Origin: a virus
Taxonomy: Duplodnaviria > Heunggongvirae > Uroviricota > Caudoviricetes
DNA length: 55,029 nucleotides
IMG/VR virus record: IMGVR_UViG_2859793810_000007
Strand: one strand, 5' to 3'
This document shows, piece after piece, positions 28,267-37,587 of this stretch (the first letter of the stretch is position 1; each line of letters starts with the position of its first letter). The notes beneath the pieces are model-generated. The model was not told the origin of the DNA. It ran no database searches and worked only from the letters and a program-made list of their open reading frames with translations. A program made the translations under genes and the position numbers.

Positions 28267-28341
28267 TGGAGCGGGCAGCGGGAATCGAACCCGCATCATC
28301 AGCTTGGAAGGCTGAGGTAATAGCCATTATACGATGCCCGC
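28267..28341 (-). tRNA. tRNA-Gly (anticodon UCC)
   Basis: rc folds as cloverleaf GCGGGCA...TTCGATTCCCGCTGCCCGCTCCA; anticodon loop CUUCCAA; resembles glyT-type tRNA. Confidence 0.75.
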
Positions 28342-28344
28342 ATA

Positions 28345-28420
28345 TGGTGCCGACTACCGGAATCGAACTGGTGACCTACTGATTACAAGTCAGTTGCTCT
28401 GCCTGCTGAGCTAAGTCGGC
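28345..28420 (-). tRNA. tRNA-Thr (anticodon UGU)
   Basis: rc GCCGACTTAGCTCAG...ACTGACTTGTAATCAGT...GGTAGTCGGCACCA; anticodon loop CUUGUAA; one A:C mismatch in T-stem. Confidence 0.65.
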
Positions 28421-28422
28421 GC

Positions 28423-28499
28423 TGGCCCACCACCGAGGACTCGAACCTCGCACCGTCAACTTAGAAGGTTGATGCTCTATCCGGATGAGCTAGTGGTGG
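28423..28499 (-). tRNA. tRNA-Arg (anticodon UCU)
   Basis: rc CCACCACTAGCTC...TCAACCTTCTAAGTTGA...GGTGGTGGGCCA; anticodon loop CUUCUAA. Confidence 0.75.
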
Positions 28500-28500
28500 T

Positions 28501-28577
28501 TGGTGGCCCTTGCTGGACTTGAACCAGCGACCTGGCGATTATGAGTCGCTCGCTCTGACCAACTGAGCTAAAGGGCC
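28501..28577 (-). tRNA. tRNA-Ile2-like (anticodon CAU; could be Met)
   Basis: rc GGCCCTTTAGCTCAGTTGGTCAGAGCGAGCGACTCATAATCGC...; close to E. coli ileX-type sequence. Confidence 0.75.
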
Positions 28578-28663
28578 GGAGGCAGAATAATAACCATATG
28601 TCATCACATCTGCAAACTCATCTGACCACCAGCGTGTTTAACGTCCTGTACCGTTTTTCAGGC

Positions 28664-28690
28664 ATAAAAAACCCGCCCGGAGGCGGGTTT
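28664..28690 (-). terminator. rho-independent terminator between Q and the tRNA array (tR-prime-like)
   Basis: minus strand CCCGCC-UCCG-GGCGGG hairpin followed by UUUUUU; lies about 90 nt downstream of the Q stop. Confidence 0.5.
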
Positions 28691-28776
28691 AAGCTGTGTG
28701 GCGAAGCAACCACTCTTAACAGAATATCCCGTTTTTTACGTACGTAAAATATTTTCTAGAAAGTCGCCCCTTACCA

Positions 28777-29157
28777 TCAGGGATGTTCAATATATTTGTC
28801 CATTTCTAACCGGACACCCAACATCATCAACATTCCTTCCACCACCCCCTCGGCTTTTTGTAGCTTCTTTCCTATATAACCATCTGAGCATCCATGCTTC
28901 CGCGCCAGCGTCATGAATGTCATCCCAAACACGTAGTAGTCAACCAGCAAGTCATGTAGATCGTTGTTGTTCCGGTTAAGGCGGGCCATACACCCACATA
29001 TAACCATCGCGTCATCGTCACAGCATTGCGGGCGGGATTTTACTTTTGAAGGGATTAATCCCTTAAAACCGGCAGCAATGGACGACCAGGTCACATCCTC
29101 ATGATTATTAGCCACCCACGCGCCCCAGCGCTCAAGAACCTGCTGAATATCACGCAT
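28777..29157 (-). CDS. Q: late antiterminator Q (82/933W-type)
   Basis: [34 protein letters not shown]...[17 protein letters not shown]... recognised as the Q family of phage 82/Stx phages; position directly upstream of terminator and tRNAs. Confidence 0.75.
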
Positions 29158-29353
29158 CACTGTCTTTACCCCTGTCCCATCCACGATGAACAATCAGAAC
29201 ACCATCAACAATGGCGTGCCCTTTGCCCTCTTTATCTTCAGCATATTTTCTTACCGTGGCGCGATTACAGTTCAGCATTCGTGAAACTTCGGTCATATTA
29301 CCTCGTGTCTGGATAAGCAGTTCCGGTATCGTTTGAATTTTGACGCTCATCAA
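29150..29353 (-). CDS. ninH: NinH-like protein
   Basis: 67 aa ...[38 protein letters not shown]... like lambda NinH. Confidence 0.7.
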
Positions 29354-29444
29354 ATACTCTCCGGTTCGGTGATTTTTATCCCGGGCTTTCCACCAGGGAC
29401 ATAATGATCGCGCACAAGCCAGGGCAAAACAAACTCATGGCGCA

Positions 29445-29702
29445 TCAGCGCAGCGCCTCCTGCACCAGTTTTTCAAACTTTCCGACTCTGGTTTCCAGCT
29501 CTGCCACACAGTCCACCAGCTCATCTACTGCTTTCTGTGCGCGATGCTTCGCCTGCATCAGTTCCCGAAGCGCGGGTACCATATCTTTACGGATAGCATC
29601 TTTTGTTATGCCCGTTTTTTCGAGTTGTTCAGCATGACGCAGCATTTCCTGCGCGTGTTTACGCAATTGTTCAGGGGTAAAAGTCATTGTCTGGTTGTTC
29701 AA
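29445..29702 (-). CDS. hypothetical 85-aa helical protein
   Basis: ATG overlaps the stop of the DnaB-like gene (translational coupling); coiled-coil-like; no family recognised. Confidence 0.4.
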   Translation of the reverse strand: MNNQTMTFTPEQLRKHAQEMLRHAEQLEKTGITKDAIRKDMVPALRELMQAKHRAQKAVDELVDCVAELETRVGKFEKLVQEALR

Positions 29703-35638: not shown

Positions 35639-35673
35639 TCGAACAATGGCGACAACAATTTCCCATTGAAGCG

Positions 35674-36465
35674 ATGTGTCAGGTATTTGGTGTATCCAGG
35701 AGCGGTTATTACAACTGGGTACAGCATGAACCCTCAGACAGAAAACAAAGTGATGAGCGGCTAAAACTGGAGATTAAGGTGGCACATATCCGCACTCGCG
35801 AAACATATGGAACCCGGCGGCTCCAGACGGAGCTGGCAGAGAATGGCATCATCGTTGGTCGTGACCGACTGGCACGTCTTCGTAAGGAGCTGAGGCTACG
35901 CTGTAAGCAGAAACGCAAGTTCAGAGCGACTACGAACCCGAACCACAATCTGCCAGTTGCGCCAAATCTGCTGAACCAGACGTTCGCTCCTACAGCACCA
36001 AATCAGGTCTGGGTGGCGGACCTGACGTATGTTGCTGGCATCAAAGATGTTTATACGTGCGAAATTGTCGGCTACGCCATGGGAGAGCGCATGACAAAAG
36101 AGCTGACAGGTAAAGCCCTGTTTATGGCGCTCAGGAGCCAGCGCCCACCTGCCGGGCTAATCCACCACTCTGATCGAGGTTCACAGTACTGCGCATACGA
36201 TTACCGGGTCATACAGGAGCAGTCTGGTCTGAAAACATCAATGTCGCGTAAAGGTAACTGTTACGACAACGCTCCGATGGAAAGCTTCTGGGGAACGCTG
36301 AAAAATGAGAGCCTGAGCCACTATCGTTTTAATAACCGGGATGAAGCCATCTCAGTAATACGGGAATACATTGAGATTTTCTACAATCGTCAGCGTCGTC
36401 ACTCTCGTCTGGGGAATATCTCCCCGGCAGCCTTCAGGGAAAAATATCATCAGATGGCTGCTTAA
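35674..36465 (+). CDS. IS600 OrfB, 9-aa deletion variant
   Basis: 263 aa versus 272 aa in the other copies. Confidence 0.85.
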   Translation: MCQVFGVSRSGYYNWVQHEPSDRKQSDERLKLEIKVAHIRTRETYGTRRLQTELAENGIIVGRDRLARLRKELRLRCKQKRKFRATTNPNHNLPVAPNLLNQTFAPTAPNQVWVADLTYVAGIKDVYTCEIVGYAMGERMTKELTGKALFMALRSQRPPAGLIHHSDRGSQYCAYDYRVIQEQSGLKTSMSRKGNCYDNAPMESFWGTLKNESLSHYRFNNRDEAISVIREYIEIFYNRQRRHSRLGNISPAAFREKYHQMAA

Positions 36466-36508
36466 AAAAAGAACAAATGGTAGTGTCCGCTATTGCCAGT
36501 ACACCTCA

Positions 36509-36598
36509 CTGATCCAACCACTGCAAAAACCAGTAGCCGGCACTGCCGGCGGAGGTGCCGTAGGCAATGCCTGTTGATATTTTTTCCATCTGATACAT
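36509..36598 (-). pseudogene. pinholin 5-prime fragment (second lambdoid lysis region, truncated by IS600)
   Basis: [30 protein letters not shown] then IS600 end; N-terminus differs from the intact holin at 27759-27974, so not a simple duplicate. Confidence 0.6.
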
Positions 36599-36630
36599 AT
36601 CCCGCCCCCCCGACAGACCTGTGCTATCGG

Positions 36631-36665
36631 AAAGAAAAAAGGCCATCAGCAAAACTCTGATGGCC
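36631..36665 (-). terminator. rho-independent terminator upstream of the holin fragment
   Basis: 9-bp stem GGCCATCAG/CTGATGGCC with 7-nt loop; on the minus strand followed by UUUUUUCUUU. Confidence 0.5.
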
Positions 36666-37277
36666 TGAATCACCTTTACCAATATTGTATGAAAAAACAC
36701 GCACGACTAATTGACAATAATTTTCATTTCCATTAAAAAAGATCGCGTAGCATTCTTAATTCATGAGGAACTTTACCCGCCAGCAATCTGAGTAGCGAAA
36801 GCTGTTCATCCCCAATGTTTTTGCTGGCGGGTCCTTTTTTCTACGGTCCTCCTCCCCGGAGGGGCATTTCATTATTTTTCTAATCGTTACTGGTGAGAAG
36901 GCGGAAGAAAAAGCCAGTTCTTCGCCCCTAAATAACAGCATGATTCCAGTCCATGCAAAATCTGATTTCCAGCTCACACATACCGAGCACTGTACAAAAA
37001 ACCGCCAACCAAGGCAGTTAAGAGTGTGTTCCCGGGGTTTGCTTAGAATATTTTGTAAGTTGTCCGAAGAGATATTTACAACACCAGAATGATGCATTAT
37101 CAGTCCCCTGCCAGAGGTTCACTACGTAACCTGACCGACAATGCACCATTCTGGTGCTGAAAAAAGAGCACTGGAACTGCAACAAAACAACATCACAGAA
37201 CAGGAGATGGTAAGGAGTCAGACATTCCCACACAATATTGTGTCAGTGCAAATAACAACCTTCGTCTCAAATCTCGC

Positions 37278-37352
37278 TGGAGCGGGCAGCGGGAATCGAA
37301 CCCGCATCATCAGCTTGGAAGGCTGAGGTAATAGCCATTATACGATGCCCGC
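37278..37352 (-). tRNA. tRNA-Gly (UCC), second copy
   Basis: identical to 28267-28341. Confidence 0.7.
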
Positions 37353-37355
37353 ATA

Positions 37356-37430
37356 TGGTGCGACTACCGGAATCGAACTGGTGACCTACTGATTACAAGT
37401 CAGTTGCTCTGCCTGCTGAGCTAAGTCGGC
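37356..37430 (-). tRNA. tRNA-Thr (UGU), second copy with 1-nt deletion in the 3-prime acceptor strand (possible pseudo-tRNA)
   Basis: GGTGC-GACTACC here versus GGTGCCGACTACC in copy 1. Confidence 0.5.
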
Positions 37431-37432
37431 GC

Positions 37433-37509
37433 TGGCCCACCACCGAGGACTCGAACCTCGCACCGTCAACTTAGAAGGTTGATGCTCTATCCGGATGAGC
37501 TAGTGGTGG
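37433..37509 (-). tRNA. tRNA-Arg (UCU), second copy
   Basis: identical to 28423-28499. Confidence 0.7.
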
Positions 37510-37510
37510 T

Positions 37511-37587
37511 TGGTGGCCCTTGCTGGACTTGAACCAGCGACCTGGCGATTATGAGTCGCTCGCTCTGACCAACTGAGCTAAAGGGCC
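37511..37587 (-). tRNA. tRNA-Ile2-like (CAU), second copy
   Basis: identical to 28501-28577. Confidence 0.7.

Follow-up and report, generated by a model that had tools for sequence, protein, structure and literature searches.

Why does one stretch of prophage DNA carry the same four tRNA genes twice, and does it matter that one of the eight genes lacks a nucleotide? These questions are raised by IMG/VR record IMGVR_UViG_2859793810_000007, a sequence of 55,029 nucleotides (nt) that was analyzed at its full length and is called the window here. We consider it likely, with a rough probability of 0.8, that two lambdoid prophages in the Shigella flexneri chromosome each hold the same four-tRNA cassette in the late region. 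The cassette belongs to a class that is known, widespread and already annotated, and the deletion in its second copy is a minor, ordinary decay polymorphism.

The source of the window was established through a 619-aa primase-like protein (33201-35060) that is identical in ten chromosome assemblies, including AE014073.1, which we take to be S. flexneri 2a 2457T. Judged by sequence identity, the window is S. flexneri chromosome DNA, since the primase-bearing loci of these ten assemblies were 99.6-100% identical to it.

Two copies of one tRNA array

The tRNA genes were called with ARAGORN and scored with the Rfam tRNA covariance model, which has a gathering score of 29 bits. ARAGORN called two blocks of four tRNA genes in the window, and all eight genes are on the minus strand. 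The copy 1 array occupies 28267-28577 and the copy 2 array 37278-37587, and in each the order of transcription is Ile2-CAU, Arg-UCU, Thr-UGU, Gly-UCC. The first-pass annotation of this DNA had proposed two arrays with these four anticodons, which the calls bore out. It had also set a covariance-model scan of both arrays as a check beforehand, and all eight genes passed the gathering score at 55.9-70.5 bits. A relaxed-threshold Rfam scan returned, besides the tRNAs, only chance-level matches. The arrays are compact, with CCA ends encoded in all four tRNA genes and spacers of 1-3 nt. The eight genes are the following:

28501-28577, minus strand: copy 1 tRNA-Ile2 (CAU); ARAGORN, Rfam 70.5 bits
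28423-28499, minus strand: copy 1 tRNA-Arg (UCU), argN-like, with a C1-G72 acceptor end; ARAGORN, Rfam 56.4 bits
28345-28420, minus strand: copy 1 tRNA-Thr (UGU), intact; ARAGORN, Rfam 69.8 bits, fold with a 7-bp acceptor stem
28267-28341, minus strand: copy 1 tRNA-Gly (UCC); ARAGORN, Rfam 64.9 bits, alignment to glyT
37511-37587, minus strand: copy 2 tRNA-Ile2 (CAU), same sequence as copy 1; ARAGORN, Rfam, alignment
37433-37509, minus strand: copy 2 tRNA-Arg (UCU), same sequence as copy 1; ARAGORN, Rfam, alignment
37356-37430 (ARAGORN 37357-37430), minus strand: copy 2 tRNA-Thr (UGU), with a 1-nt deletion; Rfam 55.9 bits, alignment
37278-37352, minus strand: copy 2 tRNA-Gly (UCC), same sequence as copy 1 and host glyT; ARAGORN, Rfam, alignment

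The CAU anticodon of tRNA-Ile2 is read as isoleucine after lysidine modification. A sequence identical to the CAU gene is annotated as tRNA-Ile in RefSeq, and chromosomal tRNA-Ile(CAU) genes share about 90-92% identity with the gene; the label Ile2 is therefore correct. The pairs C4-G69 and C5-G68, which are TilS determinants, are visible in its sequence.

The two arrays lie in a direct repeat of 406 nt (28266-28671 and 37277-37681), which was found at 98.5% identity, far above chance, when the window was compared with itself by BLAST. Pairwise alignment revealed five substitutions between the copies, all of them in the 94-nt leader that precedes tRNA-Ile and none in the 311-nt tRNA block, where a single 1-nt gap is the only difference. 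The chance that all five substitutions would fall in the leader is (94/405)^5, or about 7e-4. Homology between the copies runs from the U-run of the upstream hairpin to the last base of tRNA-Gly, which makes the cassette a mosaic module with clean boundaries.

Promoter-like and terminator-like signals precede both arrays:

28587-28616, minus strand: copy 1 promoter-like site, TTTGCA-18-TATTAT in the scan, TTGCAG-17-TATTAT in the conserved reading
37597-37626, minus strand: copy 2 promoter-like site, same sequence as copy 1 (scan and alignment)
28666-28690, minus strand: copy 1 terminator-like hairpin and U-run, tR'-like, between Q and the array; fold -18.5 kcal/mol, z -3.3
37675-37705, minus strand: copy 2 terminator-like hairpin and U-run, unlike copy 1 in sequence; fold -11.4 kcal/mol, z -2.7

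Across seven arrays with otherwise diverged upstream sequence, the columns TTGC...N17...GTTATTAT are invariant, and they end 9 nt before the 5' end of tRNA-Ile.

Late regions of the two prophages

In both copies, the array was found downstream of a Q or Q-like gene and a tR'-like terminator, with late or lysis genes after it on the same strand. The late region around copy 1 is lambdoid and largely intact. Its order on the minus strand begins with a DnaB-like helicase gene, Q, the hairpin and the array, and continues with a phage-21-type holin, a 209-aa gene, phage lysozyme and Rz, followed by terminase, head and tail genes. The 3' end of Rz abuts an insertion sequence at 24864-26128. The genes that flank the two arrays are the following:

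28777-29193, minus strand: copy 1 Q antiterminator; PF06530 (Phage_antitermQ), E 5.8e-54; PHROG 79
27759-27974, minus strand: copy 1 phage-21-type holin S (pinholin family), intact; PF04971, E 5.5e-35
26527-27060, minus strand: copy 1 endolysin (phage lysozyme); PF00959
26126-26545, minus strand: copy 1 Rz, after the endolysin; PF03245
37777-38218, minus strand: copy 2 Q-like gene, DUF1133; PF06576, profile positions 39-176 of 176; PHROG 753
36509-36598, minus strand: copy 2 holin stump of 30 codons, phage-21 S type; open reading frame (ORF) translation and similarity to the copy 1 holin

The prophage that carries copy 2 is a dead remnant in which both Q and the holin have been cut by insertion sequences. 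A 1250-bp insertion sequence at 38219-39468 has cut off the 5' end of its Q-like gene, and its holin is cut by the insertion sequence at 35272-36508. The first-pass annotation had missed that this prophage is shattered by insertion sequences, and it had placed both arrays before a pinholin gene, with flanking Q and holin sequences that differ between the copies. The difference holds for Q, as one gene is PF06530 and the other DUF1133, and BLASTP gave no alignment between them. It does not hold for the holins, which are both of the phage-21 S type; the surviving 81 nt of the copy 2 holin are 96% identical to the copy 1 holin. The position before a pinholin gene stands for copy 2 only in the sense that a 30-codon stump lies about 680 nt from the array. 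At two other loci (L014 and L013), PF04971 was recorded on gene calls of 30 and 46 aa. An ORF of 71 aa (37018-37233) and another of 113 aa (36756-37097) were considered as the copy 2 holin and rejected, as neither matched a Pfam or PHROG family; the real remnant is at 36509-36598.

An intact counterpart of the copy 2 region was found in E. coli FDAARGOS_944 (locus L001), with 99.5% identity over 1713 nt. The order there is DUF1133, four tRNAs, holin, RrrD lysozyme and lysis protein, and the tRNA-Thr is normal. Compared with FDAARGOS_944, the segment of the window that holds the truncated Q, the tRNAs and the truncated holin is inverted relative to the gene from 39469 onward.

The 688-nt spacer between copy 2 tRNA-Gly and the holin stump (36590-37277) contains no ORF with a family match. 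The spacer has no match among phage records, and the nine E. coli genomes in which it is complete have no annotation for it. Parts of it have matches at 80-90% identity in about 1,500 records, and 639 of the matching places are on plasmids. It also contains a long, near-perfect hairpin of about 27 bp on the minus strand (37075-37160; -52.5 kcal/mol, z -6.3).

Several other features of the window were recorded. The 209-aa ORF between the prophage 1 holin and endolysin (27126-27755, minus strand) matches no Pfam family and belongs to PHROG 1085, of unknown function; it is rich in ATA, AGA and GGA codons. At the far end of prophage 1 is a full-length ipaH gene (1060-2823, plus strand) with NEL E3 ligase and LRR_TTSS domains. 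The insertion sequences of the window comprise three copies of about 1265 bp (24864-26128, 35272-36508, which is inverted, and 47987-49251), two copies of 1250 bp (31985-33234 and 38219-39468) and IS2 at 40959-42232. They cut Rz, the holin, Q, a replication gene and a terminase. Two minus-strand ORFs, 31087-32058 and 37777-38292, share their first 24 residues and read from the end of the 1250-bp insertion sequence into truncated phage genes, so insertion-sequence-driven fusion transcripts are possible at both. A Mu-type transposase gene (49249-50883, minus strand) is probably part of another phage remnant. Near the copy 2 locus in the S. flexneri assemblies L010, L012, L015 and L017 there is a gene for a group II intron reverse transcriptase (RVT_1 and GIIM, 502 aa), which is absent from the window and from 2457T.

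The deletion in the second tRNA-Thr gene

The only difference between the arrays within the tRNA block is the loss of one G (G70/G71) from the 3' acceptor strand of copy 2 tRNA-Thr, at about 37360/37361. It changes GGTAGTCGGCACCA to GGTAGTC-GCACCA in the tRNA sense and reads GGTGC-GACTACC on the plus strand. A sequencing or assembly error in a single record would produce this kind of change, as only one base is lost, from a run of two G, and mapping could be misled by the perfect paralogue that lies 9 kb away. However, the copy 2 locus is present in nine of the ten primase-bearing S. flexneri assemblies, and when these nine were compared, seven independent assemblies had the same allele at the same locus, including the finished genome of 2457T (AE014073). 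The other two, CP045941.1 and CP094987.1, keep the G on an otherwise identical background: the remaining 405 nt match copy 2 of the window, and the five copy-2-specific leader bases are retained. A further S. flexneri chromosome, CP182556.1, also has the deletion. Copy 1 was intact in all nine loci that reach that far (L017 ends short of it). Since the allele recurs at the same locus in independent assemblies, we give the error explanation practically no weight. From these alignments, the deletion is a genuine polymorphism within S. flexneri, and the one-nucleotide loss described by the first-pass annotation is confirmed.

A scan of species-representative genomes found the allele only in S. 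flexneri SFBU1023 and one of the assemblies above, and just 1 of the 5,426 complete E. coli genomes carries it. The same deletion, together with A9G, was found in a lineage with an Ile-Lys-Thr-Gly cassette, namely in E. coli FDAARGOS_943 and two IMG/VR contigs. These three carriers (L004, L005 and L006) are one prophage, 99.8-99.95% identical, and repeated independent occurrence was therefore rejected. The history is one of at most two events, or of one event spread by gene conversion between arrays; the allele may have been transferred in this way between co-resident arrays. We also rejected the idea that decay of the gene is tied to inactivation of Q, since Q is frameshifted in FDAARGOS_943, yet intact (229 aa) in the near-identical L004.

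The first-pass annotation had predicted that the loss would unpair the acceptor stem, and the predicted fold agrees. With the deletion, the Rfam score falls from 69.8 to 55.9 bits (about 14 bits) and the model assigns the gap to the acceptor stem. Normal tRNA-Thr has the 7-bp acceptor helix in its minimum-energy fold (-22.3 kcal/mol). In the fold of the deleted form (-16.2 kcal/mol) the acceptor helix is absent, and the stability of this fold does not exceed that of shuffled sequence (z -0.13). Copy 2 tRNA-Thr does not have an intact 7-bp acceptor stem with G1-C72 and C2-G71; the best remaining stem has 6 bp and a bulged C, and the 2:71 pair is therefore lost. G1-C72 and C2-G71 are identity elements for threonyl-tRNA synthetase (ThrRS). 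The length of the acceptor/T helix matters for RNase P and EF-Tu, and the 1:72 and 2:71 pairs are needed both for ThrRS recognition and for handling by RNase P and EF-Tu. Because the deletion breaks both pairs in the predicted structure, copy 2 tRNA-Thr is probably a pseudogene or a weak allele. Such a loss would be tolerated, as the same anticodon is available from copy 1 and host thrU.

Selection for the deletion, rather than simple decay, was also weighed. The deletion is the majority allele in the sampled S. flexneri (7 of 9), and it is identical in the unrelated Ile-Lys-Thr-Gly prophage lineage. Selection might act by silencing a surplus thrU copy or through an uncharged, tRNA-like regulatory or decoy RNA, for example against P2 Old. 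We regard this as very doubtful.

A second example of acceptor-strand decay in these arrays was observed in E. coli RMDEC332 (L002 3331-3405). There, the glyT-like fourth gene has decayed in an otherwise identical cassette: the anticodon TCC has become TAC, so that the gene is called tRNA-Val, and A38G, a 1-nt deletion in the 3' acceptor strand and a change of CCA to CAA are also present.

Origin of the cassette and its possible role in codon supply

By alignment, the cassette is a composite of an Ile2-Arg half homologous to ileZ-argN and a host-like Thr-Gly half. Over 172 nt (query 47-218), the Ile-Arg half and the annotated ileZ-argN of Stx2 phages are about 88% identical, and no host tRNA-Arg aligned to the cassette tRNA-Arg at E<=1e-5. 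In direct alignments, the cassette tRNA-Gly was 100% identical to host glyT. The cassette tRNA-Thr and host thrU differed by two bases, both in the D-loop; the Thr gene of the Lys-type arrays matches thrU at 100%. The first-pass annotation had overlooked that both genes, Thr and Gly, copy host genes, and also that this type of cassette is common and already annotated, including in RefSeq. The Ile-Arg/Lys-Thr-Gly type was found in 579 of 5,426 complete E. coli genomes, and a pair of the ileZ-argN type in about 2,250. The Arg form seen in the window is present in only about 10 of the 5,426. The four-gene form with Lys-UUU accounts for about 570 complete E. coli genomes and is also found in induced phages such as vB_EcoS-689R5. 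The Thr-Gly pair alone occurs downstream of stx in phage phi467.

The closest known systems differ from the cassette in informative ways. The ileZ-argN-argO cluster of Stx2 (933W-type) phages is likewise downstream of Q and upstream of the late genes, has homologous Ile2-CAU and Arg genes and a conserved TTGCxx-N17-TATTAT upstream, and shares the rationale of rare AUA and AGA codons. It has argO where the cassette has copies of thrU and glyT, and here lysis genes rather than stx follow. A limited literature collection yielded no paper for the term ileZ. The Ile-Lys(UUU)-Thr-Gly arrays (vB_EcoS-689R5, PhiR47_1) have the same four-gene layout and spacing at about 93.6% identity, but the anticodon loop of the second tRNA is CCUUUAA (Lys-UUU, C33) in contrast to CUUCUAA (Arg-UCU) here, and the discriminator base of that tRNA also differs from the Arg form in the window. 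U is near-universal at tRNA position 33. The second tRNA thus comes in two forms on one scaffold, with the Lys-UUU form at L003 3095-3171, L004 7133-7209 and L006 5888-5964; judged by sequence, this looks like an anticodon switch, and the Lys form is possibly a nuclease-evading tRNA-Lys.

Genes for tRNA downstream of Q, explained by codon supply, have been described in SfI, Sf6, ST64T, PS3 and P21 (PMC3636060). Their position is the same as here, and the published reading is a supply of ACA-reading tRNA-Thr(UGU), with ACA usage of 17.3 in SfI against 7.1 in S. flexneri 301 (PMC3636060). Those phages have one or two genes, Asn-GUU and/or Thr-UGU, and not a four-gene cassette. The host operon thrU-tyrU-glyT-thrT (the tufB operon) has the identical glyT and the thrU that is two D-loop bases off. 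Unlike the cassette, it has tyrU and long spacers between thrU and glyT and is located between coaA and tufB. The cassette belongs to a prophage late region, and its Thr and Gly genes are separated by 3 nt, with neither tyrU nor the host spacers between them.

Codon usage was compared between the phage genes of the window plus ipaH (11,641 codons) and a 50-kb backbone sample from a related E. coli (13,863 codons), and the 61 codons were ranked by enrichment of their synonymous fraction. As the first-pass annotation had expected from such a comparison, the four cognate codons were over-represented:

AGA: 5.2 per 1000 in phage genes and ipaH; 0.7 per 1000 in the backbone
ATA: 7.5 per 1000 in phage genes and ipaH; 3.5 per 1000 in the backbone
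ACA: 11.9 per 1000 in phage genes and ipaH; 5.3 per 1000 in the backbone
GGA: 12.3 per 1000 in phage genes and ipaH; 6.2 per 1000 in the backbone

AGG, which is also read by tRNA-Arg(UCU), ranked 1, followed by AGA (2), ATA (3), ACA (4) and GGA (7). The probability that four chosen codons would all fall in the top 7 by chance is 35/521,855, or about 7e-5. In ipaH alone, AGA reached 13.7 per 1000. The description of the acquired genes as AT-rich was inexact, as the phage gene sets have a GC content of 50-55% compared with 52.6% in the backbone sample. AT-richness was also rejected as an explanation for the bias, since the structural genes show the enrichment at a GC content of 55%.

The codon test supports the idea of tRNA supply. 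In a lysogen, the array would be transcribed from its own conserved sigma-70-type promoter, and upon induction, Q-modified polymerase would read through the upstream terminator into the array. Host tRNA enzymes would process the transcript, and the extra tRNA would raise the supply for AUA, AGA (and AGG), ACA and GGA, all of them codons that the host backbone uses rarely and that are several-fold commoner in phage genes, insertion sequences and ipaH. The two copies would be present because two different prophages brought the same mosaic module, bounded by the terminator U-run and the last base of tRNA-Gly.

Some observations weigh against this interpretation. Promoter-like matches in the region were as frequent as the shuffle expectation, and the site is a conserved consensus match only. 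The codon comparison was post hoc and used a single 50-kb backbone sample from a related E. coli. Also, CGG and CTT, for which no tRNA is supplied, showed similar enrichment; part of the pattern may therefore stem from a codon adaptation that is generally weak in the phage genes. For copy 2 tRNA-Thr, the predicted loss of function is drawn from structure and identity rules, and the gene is still called a tRNA by both the tRNA model and ARAGORN.

Two other roles for the cassette were weighed against codon supply. It could replace host tRNAs that are destroyed by anticodon-arm nucleases such as P2 Old, PARIS AriB, PrrC and colicin D. P2 Old cleaves host tRNA-Thr(UGU) and kills lambda-infected cells, and phage tRNA-Thr(UGU) genes rescue them (PMC12445682); a general hypothesis of nuclease-insensitive phage tRNAs has also been put forward (PMC10264068). 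The lack of resemblance between the cassette tRNA-Arg and any host tRNA-Arg would fit such a role, and so would the Lys(UUU) version in sister arrays with its unusual C33 loop, for which this explanation is more attractive. However, the rescuing phage tRNA-Thr is resistant because its CNG motif is altered and its anticodon stem is shorter, and extra host tRNA-ThrU gives little or no protection against P2 Old (PMC12445682). The cassette tRNA-Thr shows neither change. Its anticodon arm is wholly identical to that of host thrU and the tRNA-Gly is identical to glyT throughout, so both would be cut like the host copies. Counter-defence was therefore rejected for tRNA-Thr and likewise fails for tRNA-Gly, and it is improbable for the cassette in general.

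The arrays might instead be neutral passengers of no benefit to phage or host, which persist through recent prophage acquisition and their small mutational targets. The Thr and Gly genes merely duplicate host genes, and copies do decay, as seen in the window deletion, in the deletion with A9G in the other lineage and in the RMDEC332 tRNA-Gly gene. Yet many diverged lambdoid phages have conserved the cassette and its promoter hexamers but not the surroundings, the tRNA block in the window has no substitution against five in the leader, and the supplied anticodons match the most enriched codons. Neutral persistence is thus unlikely, and we favor codon supply.

Beyond annotation, the significance of these findings is slight, as descriptions of tRNA cassettes located between Q and the lysis or toxin genes in lambdoid phages go back to the Stx-phage and Shigella-phage genomes. 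Several points of annotation can be settled. The window belongs to S. flexneri. The deletion is a true polymorphism of the lineage, and annotations should mark it as a probable tRNA pseudogene. In the cassette, a chimera, phage genes of the ileZ-argN type are joined to copies of host thrU and glyT, and a P2-Old-resistant counter-defence tRNA is not a tenable reading of its Thr gene. If the arrays raise the supply of tRNAs that read AUA, AGA, ACA and GGA in Shigella, expression of ipaH and other acquired genes could benefit modestly, which would be an incremental result.

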